A stretch of DNA of 64,000 bases from Clostridia bacterium (GTDB lineage: Bacteria > Bacillota > Clostridia > Lachnospirales > Lachnospiraceae), in assembly GCA_910574255.1 (NCBI GenBank), contig CAJTAK010000001.1:83779-147778 (forward strand), in the 5' to 3' direction. This document shows, piece by piece, positions 7,927 through 62,188 of the stretch. Each line of letters starts with the position of its first letter. The stretch's first letter is position 1. The position numbers were made by a program, and so were the translations under genes. Under the pieces are notes generated by a model. It did no database searches and had not been told where the DNA came from. It saw nothing but the letters and a program-made list of their open reading frames with translations.

Positions 7927-8124
7927 CTATTTTTTCAAATACCGATAGATCAGAATATAGGCATACAAAAAGCAGGGAATTACGATCGTGCAGATCACGG
8001 ATGCCATCAGCCAGTCTCTGGTGGCGGTGTGGTCCATAAAGGCCAGAACAATAGTGATAAGATACATGCCGGCTAAAAGAACAGCACCTAAAAGGGCCAG
8101 GATGCGTTTGAGCTTCCGAAACAT
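7927..8124 (-). CDS. Small hydrophobic membrane protein (65 aa)
   Basis: Two predicted TM helices. Convergent with the upstream gene. Called only from ORF and hydrophobicity. Confidence 0.3.
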   Translation of the reverse strand: MFRKLKRILALLGAVLLAGMYLITIVLAFMDHTATRDWLMASVICTIVIPCFLYAYILIYRYLKK

Positions 8125-8649: not shown

Positions 8650-9975
8650 ATGGAGGGAGAGAATTGTCTGAAAGTCCAGATGCTGGGCGATTTTGTAATG
8701 ACCTATCAAGGAAAAATAATACAAACTGGGAGAAATCAGACCACAAAGGTTCTGCAGCTCTTGCAGTTACTTTTGTATGCCGGCTCCCAGGGACTTACCA
8801 GGCTTCAGTTAATCGAACGCTTATACAATGCGGATCTGGATGGCGATCGGTCAAATAACCTGCGTGTTACGGTTTTCCACCTGCGGAAGCTTCTGGAAAA
8901 GACGGGTTTGCCCAAGGAACAGTATATCAGTACAGAGAACGGACGTTATCGCTTTGTCTGTTCCTTTCCCATAGAGGTAGATGTGGTACACTTTGAGATG
9001 CTTCTGGGGCAGGCGGAGCAGACAGAGAATCCCGAACAAAGACTTGAGCTTTTGAAAGAAGCATGTTATTATTACAAAGGATATTTTTTGCCGGCTTTAA
9101 TGGGCGAGGAGTGGGTGGTGATTGCAGGTGCTCATTTCCAGAATCTGTATTTTGCCGCACTGGAGGAAGTCTGCCAGCGGATGCTGGAGCGTAGAGAATA
9201 CACAGAACTTCTGGAACTCAGCAGTTCAGCAGCCGCATTGTATCCCTTTGATGAATGGCAGATTTATCAGATAGAATGTCTGCTGGCTCTGGAACGGCCA
9301 AAAGAAGCCATGGCTCTCTATGAGAGAACCACAGAGATGTATTTTGATGAACTGGATATGCCTCCGTCAGAGCGGATGATCGAATGCTTCCGCCATATGA
9401 GCAGACAGATCCAATTGAATACGGGTGATTTCTATGAGATACAGGAGATGCTTAAAGAACATCCCCGGTTGAATGGTGCCTATTTTTGCACATATCCCAG
9501 CTTTATGGATATTTACCGTATTATCGTACGGACCATGGAACGATCCGGGCAGTCTGTCTATTTGCTGCTCTGTACCATATTGGATGAGAGACAGAAGCGG
9601 ATGGAGGATTCCGAGAGCCTGAAAAAGCTTTCTGAAAGCCTGGCGGAGGCGATTCAGGAGACCTTGCGTCGGGGAGATGCGTTTACCCGTTACAATTTGA
9701 GTCAATACCTGGTACTTCTTACGGGAACCCGCCGGGAAGATTGTCATATTGCGACCAGTCGTATTGATACGTGTTTTCGTAAAAAGATAAGCAGCCGTCG
9801 TGTTCATGTGAATTATCGGGTTGCGTCTATTGCTAATATACCGGGAGATTATGGAGAGAATTTTCCGGATTCTGATCAGGTGGCAGAGTGGGAGGAAAAG
9901 GATGGGTTTAAGAACCTTGATGGTGCTTCTGACAGTCCTGTGTCTTCTGACCGGCTGCGGGAAGAGAACCTCTGA
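8650..9975 (+). CDS. SARP/BTAD-like transcriptional activator (AfsR/DnrI/RedD family-like)
   Basis: N-terminal OmpR-type winged helix pattern LKVQMLGDFVMTYQGKII…KVLQLLQLLLYAGSQGLTRLQLIERLY…LRVTVFHLRKLLEK…GRYRF followed by a TPR-like BTAD region. Good RBS GAGGGAGGG. A 500-bp AT-rich upstream region. Confidence 0.6.
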   Translation: MEGENCLKVQMLGDFVMTYQGKIIQTGRNQTTKVLQLLQLLLYAGSQGLTRLQLIERLYNADLDGDRSNNLRVTVFHLRKLLEKTGLPKEQYISTENGRYRFVCSFPIEVDVVHFEMLLGQAEQTENPEQRLELLKEACYYYKGYFLPALMGEEWVVIAGAHFQNLYFAALEEVCQRMLERREYTELLELSSSAAALYPFDEWQIYQIECLLALERPKEAMALYERTTEMYFDELDMPPSERMIECFRHMSRQIQLNTGDFYEIQEMLKEHPRLNGAYFCTYPSFMDIYRIIVRTMERSGQSVYLLLCTILDERQKRMEDSESLKKLSESLAEAIQETLRRGDAFTRYNLSQYLVLLTGTRREDCHIATSRIDTCFRKKISSRRVHVNYRVASIANIPGDYGENFPDSDQVAEWEEKDGFKNLDGASDSPVSSDRLREENL

Positions 9976-10828
9976 GGAGCAGTTCCCAAAAGATAACATG
10001 CAATCAGTAGAAGCCAAAAGCCCTCTGTCGGATGCACAGGGGGATTTTCGGGTGGTTGAACCAGGCTCTGTTTATACAGGGCCTATTGACGTACCGCTTC
10101 CGGAGGCCTCGGGCGATATAGTATATGAGGGGAATGGTGTCACGGTAGATGCCAGTCATACAGAGGACGGCTACATTATGGTAAAAGGGATACCCTCTGA
10201 TACACGTTTAAAAGCCCAGGTCACACTGGGCGAGGAGACCTATACCTATGACCTGAACCAGCAAGAGGAGTACGAAGTATACCCTCTTCAAATGGGAAAT
10301 GGGTCCTATGAAGTTCAGGTATTTCAGCAAGTAGAGGGAACCTCCTACAGCCCGATTTATCAGACGGAGTTTGAAGTTGAGATGCCGGATACAGATCGGG
10401 TATTTTTGTACCCCAGCCAATATGTGTGGTATACCAATGACAAAAATGCAGTAAAGCTTTCTTACGATCTGTGTGCCGAATTAAGTTCTGATGCCGATAA
10501 GGCGGCCTGCATTTATGACTATATTGTGGCATACCTTACCTACGACAATGAGAAAGCGGCTACGGTGGAAAAGGGATATCTTCCGGATGTGGATGCAACA
10601 CTTCGGGAGCGAAAGGGGATTTGTTTTGATTACGCAGCACTCTTTGCGGCCATGCTCCGTGCCCAGGACATACCGGTACGGCTGGCTATAGGGTATGTAC
10701 AGCCTGAGAATATCTATCATGCCTGGAATCAGGTCTATATAGATGGAGAATGGGTATGGATGGATGCAACCTTTGGCCCATCCTCCTCCCATACGGAAGA
10801 TAATTACACACAGGAACGGCAGTATTAG
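9902..10828 (+). CDS. Transglutaminase-like lipoprotein (Cys-His-Asp papain-like)
   Basis: Lipobox LLTVLCLLTGCGK. Transglutaminase core KGICFDYAALFAAMLRAQDIPVRLAIGYV…YHAWNQVYIDGEWVWMDATF. The 5' end overlaps the regulator gene's 3' end. Confidence 0.75.
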   Translation: MGLRTLMVLLTVLCLLTGCGKRTSEEQFPKDNMQSVEAKSPLSDAQGDFRVVEPGSVYTGPIDVPLPEASGDIVYEGNGVTVDASHTEDGYIMVKGIPSDTRLKAQVTLGEETYTYDLNQQEEYEVYPLQMGNGSYEVQVFQQVEGTSYSPIYQTEFEVEMPDTDRVFLYPSQYVWYTNDKNAVKLSYDLCAELSSDADKAACIYDYIVAYLTYDNEKAATVEKGYLPDVDATLRERKGICFDYAALFAAMLRAQDIPVRLAIGYVQPENIYHAWNQVYIDGEWVWMDATFGPSSSHTEDNYTQERQY

Positions 10829-35701: not shown

Positions 35702-35746
35702 AAGTAGTATAGGACTATGAAATATAAAAATTATGAGGAGAACGGG

Positions 35747-37381
35747 ATGAAAAAAGGACAGATTTATGAAGGTATGGTAGAGAAAGTGGACTTCCCCAAT
35801 AAAGGGATTGTGACCTGTGAGGAGCGGAATGTTGTTGTAAAGCATACGGTCCCTGGGCAGAAGGTTCGTTTTCAGGTAAACAAGATCCGCAAGGGCAAAT
35901 GTGAGGGCCGGCTCCTGGAGGTCCTGGAGCGGTCTCCTCTGGAAATAGAACCAGCGTGTCCTCATTTTGCGGTTTGCGGCGGATGTACCTATCAGAATCT
36001 GGCTTATGAGGAGCAGATTCGGCTGAAAAGCAATCAGCTGAAGGAGCTTCTGGACAGTGCCATTGGGGAACCTTATCTGTTTGAAGGGGTGAAGGAGAGT
36101 CCGCATGGTGAGATGTACCGGAATAAGATGGAATTTTCCTTTGGTGACGAGGAGAAGGATGGGCCGCTTGCCCTTGGTATGCATAAGAGAGGGAGCTTTT
36201 ATGATATTGTGACGGTGAAACAGTGCCGGATTGTGGATGAAGATTATCGGAAGATTCTTTCCTGTGTGCTGGACTATTTTAAAGAGGAGAAGGTGCCTTT
36301 TTATCATAAGCTGCGTCATATGGGGTATCTGCGTCATTTGCTGGTGCGCAAGGGCGCCAAGACGGGGGAGATTCTGGTGGTGCTTGTGACCAGCAGTCAA
36401 ATGGAGGTTCCGGATGTGCCCTGGCTGGAACGGCTTTTGGAGCTTCCCCTTGACGGGAAGCTTGTGGGGGTTCTTCATACTTATAATGACAGCTTGGCGG
36501 ATGTGGTTCAAAGTGACAGGACAGAGCTTCTTTATGGCAGAGATTATTTTTATGAGGAGCTTTTGGGGCTTAAGTTCCGGATTTCGCCCTTTTCTTTCTT
36601 TCAGACCAATTCTCTGGGGGCGGAGGTGCTCTATGAGACGGCAAGAGCTTATATTGGAGATACGAAAGATAAGGTGATCTTTGACTTATATAGTGGGACC
36701 GGGACCATTGCTCAGATGCTTGCGCCGGTGGCGGAGCAGGTTGTGGGAGTGGAGATCGTGGAGGAGGCTGTGGAGGCGGCCAAGGTGAATGCGGAGCTTA
36801 ATGGGCTTTCGAATTGTAGGTTTATTGCCGGGGATGTTTTGAAGGTAGTGGATGGATTGAGGGAGAAGCCGGATCTTATTGTACTTGACCCGCCCAGGGA
36901 TGGAGTGCATCCGAAGGCGCTTCAAAAGATTATTGACTTTGGGGTGGAGAGGATTGTTTATATTAGCTGTAAGCCGACTAGTTTGGCGAGAGATTTGGAA
37001 CTGCTGCAGGGATGCGGGTATAGGGTGGAACGGGCTTGTGGGGTGGATATGTTTCCTTCGACTGTTCATTGTGAGACGGTTGTGCTTTTGTCCCAACTAA
37101 AGCCAGATGATTATATTGATGTAGAACTGGATTTATGTGAGTTGGATGTTACTGCATCAGAGAAAGCGGCTACTTATCAGCAAATTAAAGATTATGTTAT
37201 GGAGAAACATGGTGTAAAGGTACATACAGCTTATATCGCACAGGTGAAGAAAAAATATGGTTTAGATATGCGGAAGAACTACCATCAGTCGAAAAATGAA
37301 AAATATATTGCAAAACAATGCACGGAAGAAAAGGAGTTGTATATTAAGGAGGCACTGGAGCATTTTGCAATGCTTGGTTAA
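35747..37381 (+). CDS. rlmD: 23S rRNA (uracil-5)-methyltransferase RlmD/RumA with about 95-aa low-GC C-terminal extension
   Basis: N-terminal TRAM domain, a 4-Cys cluster (CPHFAVCGGCTYQ), the SAM-binding fold (DLYSGTGTI) and the catalytic C-terminus …CGVDMFPSTVHCETVVLL. The ORF then continues about 95 codons into AT-rich sequence (…LKPDDYIDVELD…EALEHFAMLG). Confidence 0.8.
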   Translation: MKKGQIYEGMVEKVDFPNKGIVTCEERNVVVKHTVPGQKVRFQVNKIRKGKCEGRLLEVLERSPLEIEPACPHFAVCGGCTYQNLAYEEQIRLKSNQLKELLDSAIGEPYLFEGVKESPHGEMYRNKMEFSFGDEEKDGPLALGMHKRGSFYDIVTVKQCRIVDEDYRKILSCVLDYFKEEKVPFYHKLRHMGYLRHLLVRKGAKTGEILVVLVTSSQMEVPDVPWLERLLELPLDGKLVGVLHTYNDSLADVVQSDRTELLYGRDYFYEELLGLKFRISPFSFFQTNSLGAEVLYETARAYIGDTKDKVIFDLYSGTGTIAQMLAPVAEQVVGVEIVEEAVEAAKVNAELNGLSNCRFIAGDVLKVVDGLREKPDLIVLDPPRDGVHPKALQKIIDFGVERIVYISCKPTSLARDLELLQGCGYRVERACGVDMFPSTVHCETVVLLSQLKPDDYIDVELDLCELDVTASEKAATYQQIKDYVMEKHGVKVHTAYIAQVKKKYGLDMRKNYHQSKNEKYIAKQCTEEKELYIKEALEHFAMLG

Positions 37382-43929: not shown

Positions 43930-45255
43930 TTATTCTGTGTCAGGGTTTATTTCTTCGGGAGGCTTATCTTCCTCTGTCCGTGTGCCATGTTCCAAATCAT
44001 CAGACACGGCATTGGGGAATATGCCCTCGATTGTGGGAGCAGGAGCAGATTCTTCTTCCAGGATTGGACTTTCTTCTGTATTTTCTGCAGGCAATCCATT
44101 TTCTGTTCTGTCCGTATCCGTAGGCATACTGCCATCTGGGAGGGATTCTCCGTCAGGGGAGCTTTCTTCCGATAAAGGAATATCCTGTCCATTCTGTTCT
44201 GATTTTTCAGTCTCTTCCAGCTCAAAATACTTTTTCAAGGAGCTTTCCATAACCTCAATCCTTTTTAAAGTCTTTTCTTTTTTGATGCTGCCCGAAGAAC
44301 AGTACTGCTTATAGTCCTCATAGCATTCATCAAAAAAGTAGGAAAACCACTGCCTGAAATACATGGGGCCTACCCGATAGATGCCTTTTGTGGAATCATA
44401 ATCTGTTCCCATCGCAGTATCAGCCACAAGGAAAACAATTGGAATATTGATTTTTTTAAGCATCTTGTCTTTTTCAGGAAATACCTTTTCCAGATAGTCA
44501 ATGATGTCATAAAGACGTTCTTTCTGTTCTTCCGAATAATTATTTTTGATATGTGCGGCATACCGCATAATTTCATCCGCAGAAATGGAGGAAAATTCAT
44601 AACCCTCATGTCTGCTGTCCAGAAGCATCATGGACTGTAGCAGGGTACACATATCATCAGATTTCCTCCGCTGCAGGGCAGAGAACTGGCAGATATCCGA
44701 AAAGAACCTGTCAGCAAGGAGCGACTTGATGAACTTCGCATTTTCAACACCGCATAAAGGCATTGCCTTTTGGGGCTTCGACAATGGGGCACTGTTATTC
44801 AGACGGAAGAAAATCTCTTCTATTAGGTCATCGTCCGCATCTTCAAAGCCATAGATTGTGAACTTAAAACGAAGTATTTCCTGCTGGCATTCTGCATCAA
44901 GGTCAGTGAAATATCTGCCGCCCAGTTCATAAGTAACTTCGTCAATGACAACGGATGGGGTTTCCTCATCCAACGGGTATCTCCCGTCTATGTAATCAAA
45001 AATCGTTGTCAGACGCTGTTTCCCGTCAAGGATTGAATAGGAATAATCCTTTTCACTGACTGCTTCTTTCAGACAGTAGACAGGGGGAACAGGGTAGTTT
45101 GCAAGGATGCTGTGGATCAGCAGGCTCTTTTTCAGTTTGTCACCGTCCCACTGTCCGCTTTGGCGTTGGATTACGTGATCCATTTGAAGGGTATTTTTCC
45201 CATCATACATGTTCTTTAGATTTTTTACTGTCCAGTTTAAAGTTGTCTTAATCAT
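43930..45255 (-). CDS. DUF262 (ParB/Srx-like nuclease-NTPase fold) domain protein with acidic C-terminal tail
   Basis: DGQQR-type motif SILDGKQRLTTI and an upstream HVIQRQ motif. The C-terminal 100 aa are Glu/Asp/Pro-rich low complexity. No DUF1524/HNH partner domain. Confidence 0.7.
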   Translation of the reverse strand: MIKTTLNWTVKNLKNMYDGKNTLQMDHVIQRQSGQWDGDKLKKSLLIHSILANYPVPPVYCLKEAVSEKDYSYSILDGKQRLTTIFDYIDGRYPLDEETPSVVIDEVTYELGGRYFTDLDAECQQEILRFKFTIYGFEDADDDLIEEIFFRLNNSAPLSKPQKAMPLCGVENAKFIKSLLADRFFSDICQFSALQRRKSDDMCTLLQSMMLLDSRHEGYEFSSISADEIMRYAAHIKNNYSEEQKERLYDIIDYLEKVFPEKDKMLKKINIPIVFLVADTAMGTDYDSTKGIYRVGPMYFRQWFSYFFDECYEDYKQYCSSGSIKKEKTLKRIEVMESSLKKYFELEETEKSEQNGQDIPLSEESSPDGESLPDGSMPTDTDRTENGLPAENTEESPILEEESAPAPTIEGIFPNAVSDDLEHGTRTEEDKPPEEINPDTE

Positions 45256-46019: not shown

Positions 46020-46916
46020 TTAAAAGACAAATCCCTTGTCTTTGTTGTAGTAATAGGCCTTAGTTCCTAAAATCTCGTTTGCCTGTACCTGCATCATATT
46101 TACTTCCAGATTCATTTTGGTAAGGGAAATGGCATCAAGCCCGCAGGATTCAGGAAGCAGCAAGGCTTCATGTACGGAAGAAAAGATTACATAGAAACTG
46201 CCATACTTTCGAGTAAAATCTTTCAATATATCATCGAATAGTATCGTAACAGCTCCTGCAACCCTTTTCTTGTTTGACAGTACCCAAAAGGGGCAGTCAG
46301 AAGCCTCAACTTCTTTAAAATCCTGAGCTATGCTTTGCAGGACATTTCCCATGTTCTGCAGGCTGGCTCCCATCATAGCCCTTGTATTATGTATTGCATG
46401 AGATATCAGTGATTCCTGATCTACACCCCAAAGGTTTAAGTGATAGTTGTGTACCAGAAAACTTGCCGTTTCGTTTTCTGTTGCACTGACCATGCAGCGG
46501 ACAATAACCGCAAAGTCATCAAGGAACTGACGGTGGGGTACATCCTGCAGTAATTCCTTGTTAAGATGCCTGTTGACCAGTTCCACATAAATCTTTTTAC
46601 GGGGCAGATCGTAAGTTAAAAATGGGGCAGTATCAAAATGGCGGGGATAAACCTTTGAATCAGAATAAATCTGCAGGATTCTATCCATAACATCATCAAT
46701 AGATACACCATTATCAAGTGCTTCATAAAAAGATTCCAGATAAATGGTGGGGGAGATGTTTTCGTTGCCATGCCTGATTGTCAGTCCATCCAGCTTCTCA
46801 TTTGTCTTTAAGACTTTCTGGATGGAAAGGTGGAAGCTATCTCCTAATTTCTTAGAAAGTGCCTCCAAAATCTGTTGTTTCATTGCTTCTTTGTTCATGT
46901 ATTTTTCTCCTTTCAA
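46020..46916 (-). CDS. Hypothetical protein (298 aa), first gene of the minus-strand operon
   Basis: ORF only. Confidence 0.45.
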   Translation of the reverse strand: MKGEKYMNKEAMKQQILEALSKKLGDSFHLSIQKVLKTNEKLDGLTIRHGNENISPTIYLESFYEALDNGVSIDDVMDRILQIYSDSKVYPRHFDTAPFLTYDLPRKKIYVELVNRHLNKELLQDVPHRQFLDDFAVIVRCMVSATENETASFLVHNYHLNLWGVDQESLISHAIHNTRAMMGASLQNMGNVLQSIAQDFKEVEASDCPFWVLSNKKRVAGAVTILFDDILKDFTRKYGSFYVIFSSVHEALLLPESCGLDAISLTKMNLEVNMMQVQANEILGTKAYYYNKDKGFVF

Positions 46917-48331: not shown

Positions 48332-48967
48332 ATGCGATTTTCTAAAGTAAAAGAGAAACATATATATAATGTTATGTTCGACCCTGTTCGTCAATGTGAA
48401 TTTAATTTAACACATCCTGCAGTTGTCTTAAAAAAGAATAATGATAGTAAAACATGTGTTGTTATGCCCCTGACAACAGAACCTAATGGAGTTGGTGAAA
48501 ATAAAATTGATATTGGATGTATTTCTACTTTGCCAAGTTCGTTAAGGGGCAATAATACATATGCAGTGTTCAATCAAGTAAGAACAGTGAATGTCAACCG
48601 TTTTATAGCATTTAAAGAAGTGATTGACGGGCAAAATACACCTATAGATTGCTCAATGGATGATTTTACTTTTGGAATTTTGTTGCAAAAAGCATTATCA
48701 GATTTGACTTTTGCATACACAATTGACGAAAAAATGGATTTATATCAAAAATTGTATAATGAAGAAAAATTGAATAAGTGCATTAGTATTGCATATAATA
48801 TTAAAAGATTGGATGCAGAATTTGAGGCAATGAATAGCCAGCGGATTCTTTTAAACAATGAGCTTGGGCAGTTGCTTGATAATTTTGATTATGAATTATC
48901 TCAAACTGAACTAGAAAATGGAATTCAACAGGTCTTTGAAAATGCGAAAAAGTCTGTTGACAGTTGA
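48332..48967 (+). CDS. MazF/PemK-like toxin-fold domain fused to a roughly 100-aa helical C-terminal domain (cassette 1 cargo)
   Basis: N-terminus IYNVMFDPVRQCEFNLTHPAVVLKKNNDSKTCVVMPLTTEP matches the MazF/PemK signature (Y.P.RGDI…FDP..G.E…RPAVVLS….vVvPlTS). No antitoxin ORF upstream. Confidence 0.55.
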   Translation: MRFSKVKEKHIYNVMFDPVRQCEFNLTHPAVVLKKNNDSKTCVVMPLTTEPNGVGENKIDIGCISTLPSSLRGNNTYAVFNQVRTVNVNRFIAFKEVIDGQNTPIDCSMDDFTFGILLQKALSDLTFAYTIDEKMDLYQKLYNEEKLNKCISIAYNIKRLDAEFEAMNSQRILLNNELGQLLDNFDYELSQTELENGIQQVFENAKKSVDS

Positions 48968-49702: not shown

Positions 49703-50521
49703 ATGGGGAAAAAGCGGTATACATTATATTTGGATGAAAGCAGGACTACCCAGGCACATCAAGGAACCCCTTTTTTTAGTATGGCGGGCATTGTTATACT
49801 GGATAAGCATTATCCAGTCATTCAAACAGAAATTGATGTGTTAAAGCAGAAAACATGGGGAGATTTACCTAATTACAAAGACATCATACTGCACCAGATG
49901 AATATTTCTAATGCGGCTAAGGATAAATTAGATTTTGTGAAATATCCTGAATATGAAAGATTCAAAAGCAAGCCATTTAGAAGGGAATTTAATAGAAATC
50001 TTGCGAATATATATGATTGTAAGAAAATTACGATTATTGGAAGCAGTATTAATGAATCATATTTGAAAAAGTGTTTTGAGGTATCCGTTGTTCAGGAAGG
50101 AAACAGGATTTATAGAAATGTACCTGATGAGAAATTGATTGCATTACAACTCTTATTGGAAAATTACTGTCAATTTTTATGTGAACATAATGGTCTTGGG
50201 AAAGTGATATATGAGTCTGTTGGAGATATACAGGATGAGGCTTTGCGGTGCAGGTTTTATAATATTAAACTTATGGGCTCAATGTATATTACACAAGATG
50301 CAATGGCAAACCATTTGCTTGGAATTGATTTTATCCCTAAGTGCCAGAATAATGCGGGGTTACAAATTGCAGATTTTGTACCTAATGCTTTTGCAAGAGA
50401 CCATGCGGGGTTTTATCAGATTGACAGGGATGAAATCTTATTTAATAAAATGAAATATTATAGATATGATGGTATGGTTGCAAGGGATAAGGATAGGTTT
50501 GGTGTTAAATATATGCCTTAA
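49703..50521 (+). CDS. DUF3800 family protein (cassette 2 cargo)
   Basis: N-terminal YTLYLDESR and C-terminal GLQIADFVPNAF match the DUF3800 signature. Confidence 0.65.
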   Translation: MGKKRYTLYLDESRTTQAHQGTPFFSMAGIVILDKHYPVIQTEIDVLKQKTWGDLPNYKDIILHQMNISNAAKDKLDFVKYPEYERFKSKPFRREFNRNLANIYDCKKITIIGSSINESYLKKCFEVSVVQEGNRIYRNVPDEKLIALQLLLENYCQFLCEHNGLGKVIYESVGDIQDEALRCRFYNIKLMGSMYITQDAMANHLLGIDFIPKCQNNAGLQIADFVPNAFARDHAGFYQIDRDEILFNKMKYYRYDGMVARDKDRFGVKYMP

Positions 50522-53436: not shown

Positions 53437-54279
53437 TCATGCAACTATGTCTATATTGAAGTAATATCCAAGGACTTCCAAAGCCTTCTGGTCACGGTAC
53501 ATTTTCAAAACCACATCTTCTGGGAAACAGCATCTTTTTTTCACGATTGGCTCAAAATTGCCTATTAGGGAAATTTCCTTTAGGCAGGTGTCTTGAAATC
53601 CGTCAGGAGGGAAATACAAGGATTCTGCATTACTCCATAATGACAAGGATTCTAAACCATCTGCACCTGAAAAAGTGCGTTCTTCCAGCTTGTCAAAGCT
53701 GCCCTTTATTTCAAGAGATTTAAGGGAATGGCAGCCACTAAATAGATCGTTTCCTAATTGCTTAATCTGGTATCCTAAGTCCAGGGTTTCCAGACTGGTA
53801 CACCCTGCAAAAGCCCCATCTCTGACAGTCTTTAAAATGTAAAAATGTGCTTCTTTCAGGCTTTTACATCCTTTAAAGGCATTATAGGAGATTGTGTTTA
53901 GACCAGACTGTGCCCGAATAGATTGCAGGTTTTTGCAGTTTAAGAAGGTTTCTTCCTTAATAATATGCAGGCACCTTGGAAGCAGTATCTCTTCAAGTTC
54001 ACTGCCTGCAAAGCATCTCTTGCCAATTTTAAGACCTCTTGGCAGTTTTACATTTAGAACGTGTGCATTTTCCAAAGCACAGTCATCCAGATATTTTACA
54101 CCTTCCTCTATGCAGAGGAGGTTGATCCTCAGATAATCAAAACAATGGGGGCTGATGCGGTCAATCTGCTTTCCCTTATATTGATGTGGGATGATAAGAT
54201 AATCCAGCCTCTCCCACATCATGCTATGATTACATTTAACTAATGTGTTGGTTGTTTCGTCTATAACGAATCTTTCCAT
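53437..54279 (-). CDS. Leucine-rich repeat (BspA-type, LRR_5) protein, no signal peptide
   Basis: Repeated …F.gC.sL..i.l… units: CFAGSELEEILLP, FLNCKNLQSI, AFKGCKSLKEAHF, AFAGCTSLETLDL, FSGCHSLKSLEI. Confidence 0.65.
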   Translation of the reverse strand: MERFVIDETTNTLVKCNHSMMWERLDYLIIPHQYKGKQIDRISPHCFDYLRINLLCIEEGVKYLDDCALENAHVLNVKLPRGLKIGKRCFAGSELEEILLPRCLHIIKEETFLNCKNLQSIRAQSGLNTISYNAFKGCKSLKEAHFYILKTVRDGAFAGCTSLETLDLGYQIKQLGNDLFSGCHSLKSLEIKGSFDKLEERTFSGADGLESLSLWSNAESLYFPPDGFQDTCLKEISLIGNFEPIVKKRCCFPEDVVLKMYRDQKALEVLGYYFNIDIVA

Positions 54280-54587
54280 ATAAATTTCCTCCTTTTTGAT
54301 TTTCTAGTGTTATTGTCTCATATGGAAAAAGGGAAATCCAGAGATAGGAGAATTGGGACGTGCTGATTGAGCACGAAAGGAATATATTGATTAAAGAGTA
54401 AAAAGGGATGCTAAATTGATAATGGTTATTGGGAAATAGGTAGATGGATATAGGGGAAATGTTTTTTTTGTACAGATATGTTTTGTAAAACTGGTTGACT
54501 GATATGAACGAAAAATATAAAATAAATATAGAAAAATTTGTCAAAGTAATGGTTATTTGAAAAAATAAGATTGGGGATAAAGGGCTT

Positions 54588-55802
54588 ATGAATATACTTG
54601 TGATTGGGAATGGGTTTGATTTGGCTCATGGATTGCCTACAAAATATGAGAATTTTTTGGAGTTTTGTGAAAGAGTCAAAGGAATTTATGATTTTCCTAA
54701 AAATGCATCCTTAGGTGATTACAGAGCTAAATATATTGATAATTGGAAAATGAATGATTATATAAAGACTGCATTATTGGAGGATTTTGAGAGAAAGCAT
54801 AGCCAAGGTGTTAAGATTAGTAATAAAGCATTGGAGGAACTGTATAAGCATATTAGACAAAACACGTGGCTAGAATATTTTTTGAAATGTCATAGTTTTG
54901 TGGGGGAAAATTGGATAGATTTTGAGATGGAAATTTCGAGAGTTATTCAAAGTCTGGATCAATTAAGAGAGGTGACAAAAAAGAATTTAGATATTCAGCA
55001 AGTAGATCAAGAAAAGCAAGAAATATTAATGTCTTTGTTAAAAGCATCAAAAGGAAGTACGAAAACAGATTATGGGAGTATTAAAGGAATAGATAACTAT
55101 GTCCAATTTCTAAATGTAGAATTAGAAAGATTAATCAGAGCATTAGAAATATATATTGCAGAATTTATTGCTAAAATTTCGACATCTCTAAGAAATAGTG
55201 ATATAGGACAACTTGCCATAGGGCATGTGCTGTCATTTAATTATTCTGATACATATAAAAAATTATATGGAGCAAATAAAAAAATTAGATATGATTATAT
55301 TCACGGCATAGCCAACATTAATAATACATTACAATCTAACAATATGGTTTTAGGTATTGATGAATATCTTTCTATTGAAAAAAGAGATAAAGAAATAGAA
55401 TTTATTGCATTTAAAAAATATTATCAAAGGATATTTAAAGGAACAGGTTGCAAGTATAAAGAATGGTTTTTTGATATGAAAGAAAAAAGTAAAACTATAG
55501 AGTCTGAACTAAGGCATCAATATCCTGTACAAATTCCATTTGAAAAGTTTACAAATGATACAAAAAATTATCTTTATATCTTTGGCCATTCATTGGATAT
55601 AACAGATAAAGATATATTTAGAGATTTGATTTTAAACGATAATGTGTATACAACAATTTTTTATTATAACAAGAATGATTTAAGTTCAAAGATTGCAAAT
55701 CTTGTTAAAGTACTAGGGCAAGATGAATTAATAAAAAGAACTGGTGGCAGTACAAAAACAATTGAGTTTAAGTTACAACAGGATATGATGGAGAAAAAAT
55801 AA
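54588..55802 (+). CDS. abiH: AbiH-family abortive-infection protein
   Basis: N-terminus MNILVIGNGFDLAHGLPTKYENFLEF matches the conserved AbiH start (…IGNGFDL.HGL.T.Y.DF). 404 aa. Confidence 0.7.
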   Translation: MNILVIGNGFDLAHGLPTKYENFLEFCERVKGIYDFPKNASLGDYRAKYIDNWKMNDYIKTALLEDFERKHSQGVKISNKALEELYKHIRQNTWLEYFLKCHSFVGENWIDFEMEISRVIQSLDQLREVTKKNLDIQQVDQEKQEILMSLLKASKGSTKTDYGSIKGIDNYVQFLNVELERLIRALEIYIAEFIAKISTSLRNSDIGQLAIGHVLSFNYSDTYKKLYGANKKIRYDYIHGIANINNTLQSNNMVLGIDEYLSIEKRDKEIEFIAFKKYYQRIFKGTGCKYKEWFFDMKEKSKTIESELRHQYPVQIPFEKFTNDTKNYLYIFGHSLDITDKDIFRDLILNDNVYTTIFYYNKNDLSSKIANLVKVLGQDELIKRTGGSTKTIEFKLQQDMMEKK

Positions 55803-55858
55803 TTTTATGGAATTGTATTAAAAAATGATAAAATTTATTATAGGAGGGATAATTTAAA

Positions 55859-57982
55859 ATGTATCAAAGTCCAAATGGAAATAAGACAATCAAAATGAAT
55901 CAACGAAATAACCCATTTTCATTGGGGAATAATAATTTATATGCTAGGTTTAAAAAAGCATTATCTATTCTGTTATCTGTAGAGTATTACGAGGGGTCTG
56001 AATATGGGATGTTTTATAATAAATGTGGAGAAGATGGCAGAAGTCAGATATATGTTGCTCAACCTGTGCTTGAAAAAAAGCTTAAAAAAGAATTTATTGA
56101 TGTAGAAGGTGACATGGTTAAATTTTTAGTAGGGCCAACAGGAACAGGAAAAACTACACTTATTAGAAATATGTTCCACGTTTTTGGAAGAGATGTTGTC
56201 GTTGTAGATAATAATTTAGTAATATATGTGTCATTTTATTCTATGGTCTCATATTCAGGTAATATAGAAGATGCAAATTATCTTATACGAGATGCCTTGA
56301 TTGGATCAATTAATGAGGCCGTTTCGTATTTAAATGACAAAGATTATATTGATAGATTATCTGGCTATGATGATGCATATTATAATGATTTTTATAATTT
56401 TTTGAAATCTAATAATAAACATTTGATTGAAACAGTTCCTAGTACTTCGGATAATGTGGAACAGATAAGAAATGGTAATGGTAAAAAGTTTGTTTTGGAC
56501 TGGATTGCTAAAAATAAACCAGTTGACTACTATATGTGTCAGTTAAAGTATGAACTTTATTTATATAAGAACCGTACAAACAATATGTTTGATAATATAA
56601 TATTGATTTTTGATGATTTAGAGTCATTAGCTTCTAAATATACAAACAATATAGTAGGATATGCATATCATTGTAAAAAGTGCTTACAGGCTAACTTTAA
56701 CAGAAACTATCATTTTAAAGTTTTAGTAACAATGAGAAATTATTCATATCGTATTGGACAAAACAGAAAGAAAGAAGCATTTCGTGAGATATCGTGGGAT
56801 GACATAATAAAAAAAGATACGGCCCCAACATTAAGTGCGATACTAGATAAAAGGGTAGCATATGTGATGGATTTAGATGAAGTGATAAATTCAGTAGATG
56901 ATAAAATGGCCTTTCAGAGTGCTAGTGTTAGCTTGAAAGTAATATTACAAAGGATGTATGGCCAATACGATAATATGCTTCTTTCGTTGAATCATAATAA
57001 TATTTTTAAAAGTATGACACTTATTTTTAGAATTCTTACAAATAAAGCACATATGGGAAAATATGAAACTGATAGAAGGGAGCGAAGTGGTGCTTTTGAG
57101 GTTTCCATAAAAGATTATCGTGTGGAAAATCGTAGTAATAATTCTAAGATACCTGGAAACGATGAAGTATTTTATGCCTTAGCATATGGTGAAGAAAAAC
57201 TTTATTTTGATAGTGAAGATTATTATTTAACTAATATTATGCATTATAAGAACTCTGAGGGTGAAAACACAGAACTGCTTGGGATTTATATTATTCAGTA
57301 CTTTATTCATAAAGGCGTTAATATGGATGATCCTGATTATGATGGTTTCGAGAGTCTTTCGTGTACTAATACTATTAAAGAAATAATGTCTCTTTATTCA
57401 TTTCCTACAGACGCAAAAGCTGATTCTATACATAGAGGATTTGAAATTATGATGGAGCATTTATATAAAGGAGGGGTATTACTACAAAGTATTATCGAGC
57501 CAATAATAGAAAATGATGATGTTACTCATAGAGTATATAGGCCTAAAATGAAAGTGTTTCTGTCATTAAGAGGAAATCAACTTTATAACATGCTTTCATA
57601 TAATGCTCTGTTATTTACAACTTATAGGGATGATATTGTTACTGATATAGAAGACAACGATATTCCTACATTAGATATGTCTATGGGTGATCGAATATGT
57701 TATTGTCTTACATATATTGATTATTTAGCAAGTAAAGAGATTGAGCTGTTTCGATGTGTATTAAATTATAAGAATTATAAAAATGTATTGGGGAATGAGT
57801 TGGTAGTTGTAATACTCATGAAAGGGATGAAAGAGACGATTAAAACATATTTTAAAGATTCTACTCCAGAACAGCAAGAAATCATGCAACGGTATAGAAT
57901 AATACAGCAAAAATTTAACGATTTTCTTGATTCGATTTATGATGAGGTGCAAATTGAATTTGTTCATATCGAGCCGATCTAA
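55859..57982 (+). CDS. Large P-loop NTPase of unknown family (707 aa)
   Basis: Walker A VGPTGTGKTTLI (about aa 90). A KAP-like Walker B NIILIFDDLESL about 160 aa downstream. 56-nt gap after abiH, 15-nt gap before the next gene. Confidence 0.6.
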   Translation: MYQSPNGNKTIKMNQRNNPFSLGNNNLYARFKKALSILLSVEYYEGSEYGMFYNKCGEDGRSQIYVAQPVLEKKLKKEFIDVEGDMVKFLVGPTGTGKTTLIRNMFHVFGRDVVVVDNNLVIYVSFYSMVSYSGNIEDANYLIRDALIGSINEAVSYLNDKDYIDRLSGYDDAYYNDFYNFLKSNNKHLIETVPSTSDNVEQIRNGNGKKFVLDWIAKNKPVDYYMCQLKYELYLYKNRTNNMFDNIILIFDDLESLASKYTNNIVGYAYHCKKCLQANFNRNYHFKVLVTMRNYSYRIGQNRKKEAFREISWDDIIKKDTAPTLSAILDKRVAYVMDLDEVINSVDDKMAFQSASVSLKVILQRMYGQYDNMLLSLNHNNIFKSMTLIFRILTNKAHMGKYETDRRERSGAFEVSIKDYRVENRSNNSKIPGNDEVFYALAYGEEKLYFDSEDYYLTNIMHYKNSEGENTELLGIYIIQYFIHKGVNMDDPDYDGFESLSCTNTIKEIMSLYSFPTDAKADSIHRGFEIMMEHLYKGGVLLQSIIEPIIENDDVTHRVYRPKMKVFLSLRGNQLYNMLSYNALLFTTYRDDIVTDIEDNDIPTLDMSMGDRICYCLTYIDYLASKEIELFRCVLNYKNYKNVLGNELVVVILMKGMKETIKTYFKDSTPEQQEIMQRYRIIQQKFNDFLDSIYDEVQIEFVHIEPI

Positions 57983-57997
57983 TTTAAGGAGGAAAAT

Positions 57998-59236
57998 ATG
58001 GTTCCTAAATATACTTTTGAGCAAGATAAATTAAATAGGAAATTTATATCAGAAAATATTGAAGAATATTTAGAACTTATACAAAAGAAGAATTCTGGAC
58101 ATGCTGTTTCTTTCGCCATTAATGCAAAGTGGGGAGAGGGTAAGACATATTTTATTAGTATGTGGAAAACTCAGATTGAGGAGAATGAAAAAGATGTTGC
58201 AGTTTACTATAACGCATGGGAAAATGACGATTGTGATTCTGCAATCCTTCCTTTGTTATATAATATTGTTTCTAACGAAGAGGATAGAGATTCCGATAGA
58301 TTTCTTGAATATATAAAAATCTTTATGAAAACTTTGGGGATTAATACTATAAAATTTGGTGTTAATAAAGTGTTTGGTGATAATAAGGAAATAGCAAAGA
58401 TAATTTCAGAAAGTATAGGTGAGAAAAAGGACTATTCGATTAGTGATATCTTTTCGGAATTTGATGAGTACTATGGTAAGAGGAAAAAACTTCAAGAATC
58501 ATTAAGGAGTTTTGTTCCAAATGGGGGGAATCTTTGGATTTTTGTTGATGATTTGGATCGCTGTAACCCAACATTTGCTATTAATACTTTGGAATGTATA
58601 AAACATTTTTTTAATATCGAGCATATAATATTTATTTTTGCAATAGACTATCACCATCTTACAAAATCTGCTGAACAAATTTATGGGAGAGAAATAGATT
58701 CAGAGTCTTATATGAAAAAATTTTTTGATGTTATATACCAATTACCATCCCCAGATATACAAAAGTATATAGATTATAAAATAAGTAACATTCAAAATAA
58801 TAATATACAAAAATATATAAAGAAGAATGTGCTGGTTTTTTATTTTAAGCACTTTGATTATTCGCTTAGGGATATTGATTTGACTATGATTCACATAGAA
58901 ATATTTCTTTTGAGGCATATAGAAAAACTAAAAGAATGTTCAGATATTAATAGAGCTCTTGATGTTTATTTTTATTTTATGGTTATTAAAGATAAGTACA
59001 ATAAGCAATATTTTGATATTATACATGGTCATTTTTTGATTGGTAAATCAAAAGTTAAAAGGTGGCCAATCATTGAAAGAAAATTTGTTATTAATGATGA
59101 TATTAAAGGTTTATTGGAGAAAATTTCAAATGGGCAGGCAGAGAGACATACAAAAGATATTATGGCAAGTTATTCATTGATTAACATTTCATCATTAAAT
59201 AAATTTTGTGAGCATATGGAGTATGTTTTGGGATAA
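57998..59236 (+). CDS. KAP-family P-loop NTPase
   Basis: Walker A AKWGEGKTYF (KAP G.WG.GKT.F) and Walker B LWIFVDDLDRCNP (KAP DDLDRC). RBS AGGAGG upstream of the ATG at 57998. Confidence 0.8.
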   Translation: MVPKYTFEQDKLNRKFISENIEEYLELIQKKNSGHAVSFAINAKWGEGKTYFISMWKTQIEENEKDVAVYYNAWENDDCDSAILPLLYNIVSNEEDRDSDRFLEYIKIFMKTLGINTIKFGVNKVFGDNKEIAKIISESIGEKKDYSISDIFSEFDEYYGKRKKLQESLRSFVPNGGNLWIFVDDLDRCNPTFAINTLECIKHFFNIEHIIFIFAIDYHHLTKSAEQIYGREIDSESYMKKFFDVIYQLPSPDIQKYIDYKISNIQNNNIQKYIKKNVLVFYFKHFDYSLRDIDLTMIHIEIFLLRHIEKLKECSDINRALDVYFYFMVIKDKYNKQYFDIIHGHFLIGKSKVKRWPIIERKFVINDDIKGLLEKISNGQAERHTKDIMASYSLINISSLNKFCEHMEYVLG

Positions 59237-59242
59237 TTCTAA

Positions 59243-60343
59243 TTATGTTTCATAAGGCACAAATTCAATTATAGACATAAAATTAATGATTTTTTTACTC
59301 ATTTCAATTAGCTGACTTTTCCCAAAAGGAACAAAAGCAAAATTATTGCCATAAGGTTTAGTGTTCCAAAAAGCTCCTTGCATATCAAAATTAGGAATTT
59401 CTGTACCAGAATCTTCACAAGATTTATAAAATTTCTTAGGAGATTCTGATTGAGTAGGCAGAGGGAAAACAGCGAATACTGGTCCATCTTTATAATCTGA
59501 ATCAGATACTATTAACACATTTTTTGAGGGAGAAGCATAAATACTGGCAATTTCATGTTCGGAATCATCCTTTTGCATAGTAAACATACCATACATAAAT
59601 TCAGCGTCGAATGTTGTTCCGAAATCGGCGCTGATATTTTTTTCTAGCAGATAAGAGGTTATTTCATCGCTATGAAATACACTATCAATTTGGTCGCAGA
59701 TACACTTAATTTTAGATTTATTGACCTTTCGCCATATGCTGTCTTCCAATGTAGTAAAGGTAAATTCGATATCTATGATATTACATCTAACTTTGTTGAG
59801 ATGCTCTTCATCATAATCTAATCCATACAAAATATTGAAATGTACATAATTTAAAATATTAGCAATCCTGCCTGCCAAAACAAAATATTCATCTTTAGAA
59901 CTGATACCTAAATGGGTCAGTTTATTTCGTATATTGTTCAGTATCATAAATTCTTCTTTGTAACCTTGTGGAACAGAATAAAGAGTACAATAAAGCTCAA
60001 TGCACTTTGAGTAATCTATTGTATGAATGTCGGAATTTTCGATTATATAGTTATACAAAGGCTCACCTGTTGGATAGCTTGTCTCTTGTATATAATAATC
60101 CATTATTTCTTTTGGAAGTGAATCGGTAGAAACATGTTCATAAATGAACAAAGGATTAATAAGACTTATCTTTGCTTTAAAGAAAAGCTCTAAGGAAGCA
60201 TTTAGAGATAATATTCCCTGTTTTAAATAGGTAGTGCTTATATCAGGTGTTTCAAAATAGCCATCCAACTCTAAAAATGTTCTGAAATGTCTTAATGACC
60301 ATTCAAAAGAATCTATTGCATTGTCCAAAAGTAATATTCTCAT
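59243..60343 (-). CDS. Hypothetical protein with HEPN-like R-x4-H motif
   Basis: …EEFMILNNIRNKLTHLGISS… fits the HEPN RNxxxH signature in a helical context. 366 aa. Convergent with the KAP gene (6-nt gap). Confidence 0.35.
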   Translation of the reverse strand: MRILLLDNAIDSFEWSLRHFRTFLELDGYFETPDISTTYLKQGILSLNASLELFFKAKISLINPLFIYEHVSTDSLPKEIMDYYIQETSYPTGEPLYNYIIENSDIHTIDYSKCIELYCTLYSVPQGYKEEFMILNNIRNKLTHLGISSKDEYFVLAGRIANILNYVHFNILYGLDYDEEHLNKVRCNIIDIEFTFTTLEDSIWRKVNKSKIKCICDQIDSVFHSDEITSYLLEKNISADFGTTFDAEFMYGMFTMQKDDSEHEIASIYASPSKNVLIVSDSDYKDGPVFAVFPLPTQSESPKKFYKSCEDSGTEIPNFDMQGAFWNTKPYGNNFAFVPFGKSQLIEMSKKIINFMSIIEFVPYET

Positions 60344-61024
60344 AAAGCCTCCATAAATGTTGATAAAATATATTATACATTAAATTCCATAAAGAGTATA
60401 GGACTGTATTTTTGATTCGTGCATAAAAACAAAATATTGTCCAACAGTGGAATCTATACTAAAGCAAATAGGATTTAAACAGACAGGATTCTATCAAAAA
60501 CAGAAATGAATTAAGAATTATAAATGGCATGAAGAAAACTATTCAGATAAAGAAAACCACGTAGAAAACTGAAAAGTATGTAGAATACCTATAAAATAAA
60601 GTTTTCTATATGAAGAAAATAAATAGAAATACTAATAACAACCATTATTCTACCATTGGTAAAGAAAATACATATATTTACCTTTAATGGCTATCCTGTA
60701 TCAATAAATATTAAGTTCTGTTTAATTTGAATTAATTTTTATATATGAAATGCTTAGAATACATGAGTTTACTTCACTTTTAAGAGATATTTCCATTCAG
60801 GGTTGTATGGTATTCTATGAAGAATAGAGAAAAGTTCAATCTATAAAAGAGAAAATTAGAAAAGAGCTTTAAACCTGCTTAAAATGGAGTTTTCTCTGGC
60901 TGCTCTTTATGAAGAAAATATATGTATAATTTTATTTCTATTTTAATGATTCGTGTCTATAATTCAATGTTAAATAAAGAATAGCAGGTCATATGTCTGA
61001 ATGGCCAGAAAGGAGATAAAAGGT

Positions 61025-62188
61025 ATGGCAAGTTTAAAATGGAAAAAGCTGATCATGAAAGAAAAGGTCCAGAGAGCAGACGGGGAACACATACTTCACA
61101 GGATATACATTACCCAATATAATACAGAAACAAATGAATATTTGATTTCGCCGTTTTCAGATTTTCTGAATGAATTTACACTCAATAAAGCAACAAGTGC
61201 GAATATGGCGGCTGACATTGTGGCCAGATTTTTAAATTATCTCTATTTTACGGCAGATAAGGATATTTATAGTATCACCATTCAGGATACAGTGGATTTT
61301 ATAGAGACACGGAACATACAGCAGGATACACAACGCTCCTATACGAGTTATCTGACAAAATTCTATCATTTTGTTGCTGAGAGGCTTCCTCTACAATACA
61401 TTTCCCTGGATAATTTCACTTTCGATAAAGATAGAAAAGGCCACATGGTTATGAGAAACCTGTTTACAGACCATATGAATATTAAGAAAAAGATAAATCC
61501 AGAAATCATCCACAATATTAAGAAGGAATATATTTATACCTTTATCAAGACAGCGATGGATGTTACACCTGACATTGCTTTTGGGATATATCTGCAGTGT
61601 TTCGGCGGTTTAAGGAAGTCGGAAGTGATTTCTTTGGAATATAAAAATATTGCGACAGCGGTGATGGGTGGAAGGAAGACAATGCAGATTACTTTGGAAG
61701 ATAAAGATTTAAGGGAAGACATCCCGACAGCATTTATTTCAAAATGCAAGCGGAACAGGACCCAGACAATCATACCTGTGTTTGATGACATGCTGTGTAT
61801 GCTGTATGAAAAACATAAGGAAAGATATAAAAAGAATGGATGCTCCGCTGTGTTTGTCAATTCCAACGGCAAGGCAATGACGGATGCTACATACTATAAG
61901 CGATTTAGGAAGCTGAAAGAAGCATTTATCAAAAGATTAGAAGAAGCAGATGATTTTGAAGTGAAAAGCTATGGCTTCTTTTTAAGGAGCTATAAATGGT
62001 CCACCCACATATGCCGAGGGATATTCAGCAACCTCATTGCAGAAAATACAGACAATATCATGGAGATTGCAACATGGAGGGGAGACAGAAGTTTGTCGGC
62101 AGCTTTAAGCTATCTTACGGACAGGCAGCAGACAGGTGAGAAAGTCGTGCAGTCTATGAATGAACTATACAGGAAGGAGGGTACATAG
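61025..62188 (+). CDS. Tyrosine-type site-specific recombinase (Tn554 TnpA-like)
   Basis: Catalytic residues in conserved contexts: GGLRKSEV (Arg), HICRGIFSNL (His-x-x-Arg), WRGDRSLSAALSYL (Tyr). The ATG at 61025 follows RBS AGGAGA; the track start is 61001. Confidence 0.8.
   Translation: MASLKWKKLIMKEKVQRADGEHILHRIYITQYNTETNEYLISPFSDFLNEFTLNKATSANMAADIVARFLNYLYFTADKDIYSITIQDTVDFIETRNIQQDTQRSYTSYLTKFYHFVAERLPLQYISLDNFTFDKDRKGHMVMRNLFTDHMNIKKKINPEIIHNIKKEYIYTFIKTAMDVTPDIAFGIYLQCFGGLRKSEVISLEYKNIATAVMGGRKTMQITLEDKDLREDIPTAFISKCKRNRTQTIIPVFDDMLCMLYEKHKERYKKNGCSAVFVNSNGKAMTDATYYKRFRKLKEAFIKRLEEADDFEVKSYGFFLRSYKWSTHICRGIFSNLIAENTDNIMEIATWRGDRSLSAALSYLTDRQQTGEKVVQSMNELYRKEGT

Follow-up and report, generated by a model that had tools for sequence, protein, structure and literature searches.

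Single-gene KAP NTPases of gut Firmicutes block phages in a Walker-B-dependent manner, and the validated examples are EF_KAP and a set of gut-metagenome KAPs (PLoS Biol 2026, PMC13552941). Another KAP family, PDC-S20, is labelled in PADLOC as an unvalidated candidate defined as a single gene, and no mention of it was found in the literature searched. AbiH, predicted to be SIR2-like, forms a system on its own, and a single-gene abortive-infection phenotype is known for the lactococcal protein only (PMC13064643). In this study, we relate these systems to a locus of Clostridia bacterium within a 64,000-nucleotide stretch of DNA, here called the window, in which genes of these families lie side by side. 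The best explanation, to which we give a probability of roughly 60%, is that the locus holds three independent modules, among them a two-gene cassette of a 707-aa ATPase (N707) and a KAP NTPase (KAP) that would work as a switch-ATPase defence unit. The cassette is probably an uncatalogued anti-phage module, and we regard it as a two-gene variation on the KAP-based defence candidates, so far unvalidated, with a mechanism that we infer.

The locus contains exactly four ORFs in the ORF list, arranged as the sequence-only reading had described them: AbiH, N707 and KAP are co-oriented, with gaps of 56 nt (AbiH/N707) and 15 nt (N707/KAP), and a gene for a 366-aa protein (H366) converges on them, its stop codon 6 nt from that of KAP. 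The replication gene and recombinases that it placed on the flanks were also recovered. Upstream of the four genes, a 562-aa protein shows a weak RepB_primase match and a sigma-70 region 4 HTH in the profile search; on the other side, the same search identified a Phage_integrase-family recombinase (61001-62188), and a second recombinase ORF continues past the window end and matches another locus, L024, at 87% nucleotide identity. The suggestion of AT-rich accessory mobile DNA with defence-type genes agrees with a GC content of 0.28-0.30 over 54-61 kb, compared with 0.45-0.53 in the first 36 kb of the window. L024 has the same Rep/recombinase backbone and H366, with other cargo and without N707-KAP (blastn), while L010/L011 represents a sister copy of the window's element (87-90% nucleotide identity). 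The window carries a small integrative element, laid out as Rep gene, variable cargo slot and tyrosine recombinases, and its cargo slot holds three independent defence-type modules: AbiH, N707-KAP (55859-59236) and H366.

The main finding concerns the pair of NTPases, which had been proposed as a genuine unit and is conserved as one. A KAP gene adjoins an N707 homologue in 8/8 independent loci, with homologues 85, 69, 63, 45, 38, 38 and 38% identical to N707 and surroundings that are otherwise unrelated. One of these pairs is divergently oriented; spacing ranges from a 1-nt overlap to +28 nt in six of the seven co-oriented loci. In the window, N707 (55859-57982, forward strand), the first gene of the cassette, is preceded by a GGAGG ribosome-binding site (55843-55847, forward strand) 11 nt upstream of its start. 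The strong ribosome-binding site of KAP (57998-59236, forward strand), AAGGAGG at 57986-57992 on the forward strand, lies 5 nt upstream of the KAP start and only 3 nt past the N707 stop, a sign that the two genes are tightly coupled. With L001 and L012, DNA homology covers only 55856-59229, from the N707 start to the KAP end; it begins at 55856-55859 with these loci and at 55817 with L010 (blastn). Across the eight loci, the pairwise identities of the N707 proteins correlate with those of the KAPs (r = 0.987, slope near 1), and eight further pairs were deduced from the equal size of the longest contigs for both homologues. Together, these data show that N707 and KAP are inherited and co-evolve as a single unit, which moves from genome to genome and is bounded by the ends of the two ORFs. 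Searches of the phage and plasmid collections did not recover the cassette, and what is known of its mobility routes therefore comes from metagenomic contigs only. Neighbourhood conservation, which the sequence-only reading had offered as a check, therefore extends to N707-KAP in all eight loci, but AbiH and H366 are not kept beside the pair beyond the sister element.

KAP is a P-loop NTPase of 412 aa, and its designation as a bona fide KAP family member was correct: it matches Pfam KAP_NTPase (PF07693) at E 3.7e-36 (125.3 bits, cutoff 20) over aa 21-274. Its Walker A, WGEGKTY(F), starts at aa 45 (WGEGKTY, aa 45-51) and is separated by ~130 aa from the Walker B FVDDLDRC (aa 182-189); this agrees with the family pattern of GxxGxGK[ST] and hhhhDD(L)DR parted by a long insert. 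Across 28 sequences, G46, G48, K49, D184, D187, R188 and C189 do not vary. Transmembrane helices are inserted in the NTPase domain of many KAP proteins, though not of all. No 19-aa segment of this protein reaches a Kyte-Doolittle value of 1.6, and it is predicted to be a soluble KAP variant. Against the PADLOC PDC-S20 profile PDLC04959, KAP scores 224.9 bits (7.4e-67; aa 4-348 on positions 13-363 of 464). Five other KAPs match PDC-S20 likewise, with PDLC04959 the best profile for every N707-linked KAP tested (E 1e-62 to 1e-67), and KAP falls in a divergent subclade of this candidate family. No named system had been recognised in the pair beforehand, and membership of both NTPases in one had been named as what would count against its novelty. 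This view stands for N707, which is in none of Pfam, NCBIfam, PHROGs and PADLOC v2; it does not stand for KAP, which belongs to PDC-S20.

The PDC-S20 assignment raises the alternative that KAP is a self-sufficient defence protein of this type, with N707 as an add-on regulator or specificity extender, or as a second, hitch-hiking defence gene. Solo KAP relatives without an N707 neighbour exist only at <=34% identity (P0128, P0134 and P0138), and they match PDC-S20 even better than the paired KAPs (246-279 versus 211-225 bits), suggesting that KAP may not need N707. Phage resistance conferred by single-gene KAP NTPases (PMC13552941), and the non-KAP partners of other N707 relatives, are in line with this alternative. 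Against it, adjacency holds in every locus of the clade down to 38% identity, the two proteins have diverged in step with each other, and the cassette boundaries enclose both genes exactly. Moreover, the paired KAPs (409-450 aa) are shorter than the PDC-S20 profiles (~450-464 positions) and score lower on them, consistent with function having passed to the partner. We therefore consider self-sufficiency of KAP unlikely, and favor the joint N707-KAP unit.

N707 consists of an N-terminal extension (aa 1-68), an ATPase core (aa ~80-335) and a C-terminal helical half (aa ~340-707). The Walker A GPTGTGKTT (aa 92-100) and Walker B IILIFDDLE (aa 247-255) noticed in the sequence-only reading are present, separated by a helical insert of ~110 aa, and their residues are invariant among homologues. 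The 'KAP-like' character that it gave to the Walker B is a motif resemblance only: no PF07693 match was obtained at E <= 1, hhalign gave the N707 family against the KAP family a probability of 0.8%, and what N707 and KAP have in common is limited to the DD(L)E/D Walker B and the helical insert between the Walker motifs. In the profile search, P-loop matches were at the Walker A level only. Those to the STAND profiles NACHT (14.9 bits, cutoff 26.7), NB-ARC (13.1, cutoff 23.5) and nSTAND3 (13.0, cutoff 27.2) all remained below threshold and were confined to the Walker A region. By fold, N707 matches Cdc6/ORC, plant NLRs, Avs3, RdrA and BrxC, and we classify it as an AAA+ ATPase that resembles ORC/Cdc6 and STAND proteins; for the C-terminal half, no fold match was obtained in the PDB. 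The family of N707 comprises 433 representative clusters and carries no annotation. Other relatives have as their partner, instead of KAP, either a NACHT protein or a small protein with two transmembrane segments.

Another reading is that the pair serves the mobile element itself, for example by initiating or loading its replication as an ORC/Cdc6-like protein and accessory NTPase, or by acting in partition or addiction. Yet N707 scores no better on ORC-like folds than on NLRs, Avs3, RdrA and BrxC, and the element already has its own Rep. The cassette also occurs outside the Rep/recombinase backbone: in L004-6 it sits at a prophage end, directly past the lysin and holin genes, and other settings are a chromosomal glycosyltransferase cluster and a T7SS/toxin-immunity region, where conserved replication or partition genes are absent around the pair. 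In addition, known defence genes repeatedly adjoin it, namely AbiH and PDC-S32 in L010, a Stk2/PD-T4-6-like kinase in L002, a dCTP deaminase in L012, and Menshen NsnA/NsnB with NERD-UvrD in L007. A service role for the element is thus improbable to a marked degree, while a defence role of N707-KAP is suggested through guilt by association: by these neighbours, by the prophage-end position in L004-6, by the PDC-S20 match of KAP and by the phage resistance known for single-gene KAP NTPases (PMC13552941).

As a defence unit, the cassette could work as follows. N707 would be a nucleotide-switch ATPase of the ORC/Cdc6-STAND type that binds ATP and oligomerises upon an infection cue. The oligomer would then act through a partner. 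For this clade, that partner would be the KAP NTPase of PDC-S20 type; sister clades would combine the core with a NACHT NTPase or with the small two-transmembrane protein, presumably a membrane effector. Either the infected cell or the replication of the phage may be arrested as a result. Since no nuclease, NADase or protease is recognisable in N707 or KAP, the oligomerised NTPases might exert the effect by hydrolysing or depleting NTP, or the conserved C-terminal half of N707 might have an activity that is not recognised. Such a model is supported by the fold matches and by the modular partners (KAP, NACHT or two-transmembrane protein). More tentatively, and with the odds against it, the N707 family as a whole could be the core of a new modular immune class, in which an ORC/STAND-like switch ATPase is joined to interchangeable KAP, NACHT or two-transmembrane partners. 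If this were true, the versions with KAP or NACHT would amount to 'paired NTPase' immune receptors of bacteria, with a logic like that of plant sensor/helper NLR pairs, and the conserved C-terminal half of N707 would harbor a previously unseen effector or interface domain.

The sequence-only reading had gone further and joined AbiH, both NTPases and the convergent HEPN gene into one operon or functional unit. Tight spacing of the three co-oriented genes, the lack of a terminator-like site between them (N707/KAP junction included) and the position of the region's best promoter-like site (54495-54523) upstream of AbiH speak for such a four-gene system, as does the presence of the same four genes in L010/L011. 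The latter, however, is the same element as that of the window and hence not independent evidence, and within it a 308-aa AbiJ-like gene (AbiJ_NTD4/DUF7014) splits AbiH from N707. All four genes were found together only there, whereas the pair occurs without AbiH and without H366 at seven other independent loci. The AbiH-family protein (54588-55802, forward strand; 404 aa, starting MNILVIGNGFDLAHGL) was correctly assigned, with a match to the full Pfam AbiH profile (PF14253; 9.6e-43, 147.6 bits, cutoff 30.9; positions 1-260 of 260, aa 3-359). It matches PADLOC's profile for AbiH weakly (37 bits, confined to an N-terminal stretch), which makes it a distant member of the family. It lies near the pair only in L010/L011, where the AbiH DNA is 73-83% identical, in pieces. 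Given that AbiH is known as a single-gene system, the window's copy is an independent single-gene abortive-infection candidate outside the conserved cassette.

H366 (59243-60343, reverse strand) combines an N-terminal HEPN domain with a beta-rich C-terminal domain. The HEPN-type motif reported earlier proved well conserved: IRNKLTHLG (aa 138-146) fits the HEPN Rx4-6H motif (R139-N140-K-L-T-H144), and R139, N140 and H144 do not vary among 26 sequences with identities as low as 35%. H366 also came out as a HEPN helical bundle in the fold test, while no family match was found in Pfam, NCBIfam or PADLOC (E <= 1) or in PHROGs (E <= 0.1), and no fold match for the ~130-aa C-domain. H366 joins the pair only in the sister element. 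Fourteen homologue loci have neither N707-KAP nor AbiH and lie beside other defence systems, and L024 retains backbone and H366 and not the pair. H366 is therefore an independent single-gene defence candidate that moves together with the element's recombinase side, and a single four-gene system is very hard to uphold. Even less credible is the idea that accessory ORFs with no relation to one another, some perhaps decaying, have gathered here by chance and without joint function: unrelated genes do accumulate in AT-rich cargo DNA, but all four ORFs are intact with catalytic motifs invariant among homologues, the exact proteins recur (N707, KAP and AbiH on 26-29 contigs, H366 on 9), and the N707-KAP linkage, kept down to 38% identity, contradicts it for the pair, 'independent neighbours' being our conclusion for the wider four-gene cluster only.

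Compared with known systems, the two single-gene modules are the simpler cases. The window's AbiH resembles that of Lactococcus lactis in matching the full Pfam profile and in its location, lactococcal abiH also being on an integrative element (PMC13064643), but is distant from it and unlinked to an NTPase pair outside this element lineage. From HEPN toxins (HepN/MNT type, the HEPN domains of AbiA/AbiD/AbiJ, Csm6), H366 differs in that no Pfam HEPN model matches it, no MNT antitoxin lies beside it and its HEPN domain is fused to the beta-rich C-domain. KAP shares the KAP NTPase domain with QatABCD and PifA, and matches QatA (55-60 bits) and PifA (43 bits) weakly. However, NCBIfam QatA reaches 60.1 bits against a cutoff of 600, no QatB, QatC or QatD genes are here (ORF list and Pfam show neither QueC-like nor TatD-like genes in the region), and PifA has 720 aa and is borne by the F plasmid. 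RADAR requires the RdrA ATPase and the adenosine deaminase RdrB, the latter absent here; in STAND/NLR-like ATPases (Avs, bNACHT), as in RADAR, there is one NTPase rather than two. Unlike the STAND/NLR-like proteins, N707 reaches the threshold of no Pfam NACHT, NB-ARC or STAND model, and has neither TPR, LRR or WD40-type sensor repeats nor a fused effector among Pfam families. PDC-S20 is closer, with the KAP domain, Walker A, DDLDRC Walker B, a similar length and residence in defence islands, yet its single-gene organisation is replaced in this subclade by linkage to a second NTPase of ~700 aa that is absent from PADLOC. The validated KAPs (PMC13552941) likewise come from gut Firmicutes, lie on or near mobile elements and have no known effector domain. 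By description, they are single polypeptides that have transmembrane helices and a large C-terminal fusion of unknown function, whereas the window's KAP has no transmembrane helix and a tail of only ~140 aa, its 'extra' part being encoded as a separate ATPase gene.

Only two of the four genes at this locus belong together, the 707-aa ATPase N707 (55859-57982, +) and the 412-aa KAP NTPase that follows it (57998-59236, +); the four are not one unit. The sequence-only reading had joined both NTPases, an upstream 404-aa AbiH-family protein (54588-55802, +) and a 366-aa HEPN-type protein, H366 (59243-60343, -), into a single system, a proposal rejected by the gene neighbourhoods. Its description of the DNA itself was accurate: the ORF list places all four ORFs at exactly the positions it had reported, the motifs it quoted are found in the sequence (IGNGFDLAHGL in AbiH, GPTGTGKTT and IFDDLE in N707, GEGKTYF and DDLDRC in KAP, RNKLTH in H366), the gaps are 56 nt between AbiH and N707 and 15 nt between N707 and KAP, and the region is AT-rich, with a GC content of 0.28-0.30 at the four genes versus 0.45-0.53 in the first 36 kb of the window. 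The stop codons of KAP and H366 are convergent, with 6 nt between them. A promoter/terminator scan was uninformative: promoter-like sites numbered 42, with 48 expected, and the sole terminator-like site lay upstream of the four genes, inside a gene that comes shortly before AbiH and encodes a BspA-type LRR protein (53437-54279, -). An Rfam scan found no RNA family in 50-64 kb of the window.

A word-indexed search identified 44 N707 clusters, and genomic contexts were retrieved for nine lineages. All lineages with an N707 identity of at least 38%, except one, have an adjacent KAP gene (409-450 aa), namely P0002 (85%), P0006 (69%), P0010 (63%), P0018 (45%), and P0035, P0040 and P0042 (38% each). 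The neighbourhood test suggested for the 707-aa and 412-aa proteins thereby comes out in favour of the pair, the KAP neighbour being kept down to 38% identity. In P0035 the two genes are divergent and lie where a prophage lysis module ends. Across eight loci, the window included, pairwise identities of N707 and of KAP are nearly equal (r = 0.987), and when the window is compared with the unrelated contexts L001 and L012, DNA homology is confined to 55856-59229, from the start of N707 to the end of KAP. Eight further N707-KAP pairs were inferred from longest contigs of identical size in both hit tables. These data show N707 and KAP to be a co-inherited cassette, with NTPase motifs intact in both proteins. 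The whole region had no megablast match to plasmids, N707 was not found by tblastn in plasmids or phages, and neither N707 nor H366 was found in IMG/VR scans; tblastn of KAP against plasmids and phages returned distant, domain-level matches only (26-33% identity, at most 72% coverage).

The 404-aa protein belongs, as first proposed, to the AbiH family, and matches the Pfam family over its full length (E 9.6e-43). In lactococci, AbiH has been described as an Abi system of one gene, for which a SIR2-like nature is predicted and which is frequently found on integrative elements (PMC13064643). Both AbiH and H366 accompany the pair only in L010 and L011, two loci that carry the same element as the window (87-90% at the nucleotide level). 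There, an AbiJ_NTD4/DUF7014 gene (PADLOC PDC-S32; L010 7019-7945, +) separates AbiH from N707, so that the Rep-recombinase slot swaps individual defence cassettes. H366 is similarly detached: at 14 metagenomic loci with homologues of 57-91% identity, none of N707, KAP and AbiH occurs within 8 kb, and in L024, whose Rep and recombinase backbone is that of the window, H366 is kept (92% at the nucleotide level) with different cargo, homology breaking at 59259, the 3′ end of H366. No match to H366 was found in Pfam, NCBIfam, PADLOC or PHROGs; it has a HEPN fold with an invariant RNxxxH and a beta-rich C-domain without a match, and comprises 53 clusters. Its homologues (L024-L037) lack a conserved partner and adjoin IetAS, a type IV REase with a PLD protein, HEC-01/AriA-like ATPases, and PDC-S02/PDC-M68A. 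Since it lies beside varied defence systems without the pair, H366 is probably a single-gene candidate of its own, for a HEPN defence protein or toxin, and so far unlabelled. In the protein P0089, the N-terminal ~250 aa are those of an H366 homologue and are followed by the C-terminal part of a DUF5688 protein; recombination or a chimeric assembly would account for this. The window, too, has a DUF5688 gene (46020-46916, -).

A rumA/rlmD-type methyltransferase ORF (35717-37381, +) is ~95 aa longer than would be expected of such enzymes, and directly after it the GC content falls from ~0.47 to 0.29-0.40, a pattern that would fit an insertion of mobile DNA at the gene's 3′ end. The resulting low-GC tract (37400-64000) continues past the window end. 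Besides the four genes, the tract holds further conflict-type cargo, the window's element also carrying genes for a GmrSD_N/DUF262 protein (43930-45255, -), a PemK/MazF-like protein of 211 aa, extended at its C-terminus (48332-48967, +), and a DUF3800 protein (49703-50521, +); the BspA-type LRR protein named above counts among this cargo as well. At other loci, neighbours of the pair include AbiH and PDC-S32 (L010), a Stk2/PD-T4-6-like kinase (L002) and a dCTP deaminase (L012), and in L004-6 the pair is located at a prophage end, adjoining lysin and holin genes.

N707 showed nothing beyond Walker-A-level matches in Pfam, NCBIfam, PADLOC and PHROGs, and the same holds for solved structures, among which it has no sequence relative. 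Its AF2 model is confident (pLDDT 85.6, pTM 0.85) and has an AAA+-type core in which a ~110-aa helical insert separates Walker A from Walker B. Fold matches of this model (Cdc6/ORC, NLR, Avs3, RdrA, BrxC) extend over at most 290 aligned residues at 9-13% identity; Foldseek was in agreement, with ORC4 at E 4e-5 but low TM. The C-terminal half (aa ~340-707) has no fold match, and holds blocks conserved to the same degree as the P-loop; conserved blocks of N707 lie at aa 361-390, 451-480 and 571-600. The sequence-only reading had termed the Walker B of N707 KAP-like, but homology to the KAP family was negative at profile level (profile-profile hhalign probability 0.8%), and the idea of a divergent KAP protein was rejected. 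At the extreme N-terminus, MYxSPN (aa 1-6, window 55859-55876) is kept across the whole superfamily, with N6 in 90% of 120 representatives, a degree of conservation that N-terminal tails do not usually show.

Exhaustive HMMER searching with an N707 profile recovered 433 representative clusters, of which 336 reach E ≤ 1e-10; almost all have a length of 600-730 aa. Ten distant representatives were scanned and could be placed in no family of Pfam or PADLOC. In an alignment-wide view of 120 members, the conserved residues are those of Walker A and B, R293 and R332, and, in the C-terminal half, N395, Y449, N459, R590, D592 and E627. The partner gene varies by clade. In one lineage of 39% identity, a 641-aa NACHT protein is found upstream in place of KAP (L007-L009, 6020-7945 with N707 relative at 8001-10100, both +), with a NERD-UvrD helicase on one side and a Menshen-like pair, NsnA/NsnB, on the other. 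In a more distant clade (28-36%; Roseburia, Oscillospiraceae and Ruminococcaceae MAGs), all six loci have a 200-250-aa protein directly upstream (L017 7369-7974; L019 3319-3987; L020 7345-8001; L021 5339-5971; L022 2703-3452; L023 5886-6500), which has a helical tail and belongs to no Pfam family. For five of these proteins, computation gives two TM helices at the N-terminus, that of L023 being judged from its hydrophobic N-terminus alone, which suggests a membrane effector that replaces the KAP partner. The N707 partner family is large, unannotated and modular (KAP, NACHT or 2-TM). We infer that N707 would be an ORC/STAND-type ATPase that oligomerises and works as a nucleotide switch, acting with an exchangeable partner, KAP here and a NACHT or 2-TM effector-like protein elsewhere. 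Neither cassette protein has a recognisable effector domain; the assembled NTPases may act by hydrolysing or depleting NTP, or the conserved C-terminal half of N707 may hold an activity or interface that has escaped recognition.

The 412-aa protein was correctly read as a KAP-family NTPase (Pfam, 3.7e-36). It has no transmembrane segment by hydropathy, and solved structures include no sequence relative of it. Among defence databases, its top match is PDC-S20 (7.4e-67), a PADLOC candidate of which we found no mention in the literature; judged by these profiles, the protein belongs both to the KAP family and to this unvalidated candidate. Relatives at 34% identity or less occur solo, without the partner, and score slightly better against PDC-S20 than paired KAPs. 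The claim that the pair falls in no named system holds for the two-gene architecture, which like the N707 family is absent from Pfam, NCBIfam, PHROGs and PADLOC v2, and we found no paper in which KAP is paired with a second ATPase; it is qualified by the placement of KAP in PDC-S20. Were the N707 family annotated, several hundred gene clusters of gut Firmicutes and Bacteroidales that current defence finders miss, or call a lone PDC-S20, would gain a label.

KAP NTPases were put forward as conflict-system components two decades ago. Among named systems, the KAP protein matches QatA and PifA only weakly (NCBIfam QatA, 60 bits against a cutoff of 600). Phage blocking by KAP NTPases was first shown in 2026, only for single genes, which came from gut Firmicutes, and was Walker-B-dependent with its mechanism unexplained (PMC13552941). 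The cassette would join the KAP/STAND-type NTPase defence candidates, with the difference that its KAP NTPase appears split from a presumed accessory function, placed in a second, co-evolving ATPase gene. With this function in a separate gene, the cassette would be a natural dissection of a KAP system, and hence a tractable, clean and testable two-protein model of how KAP NTPases are triggered and act.
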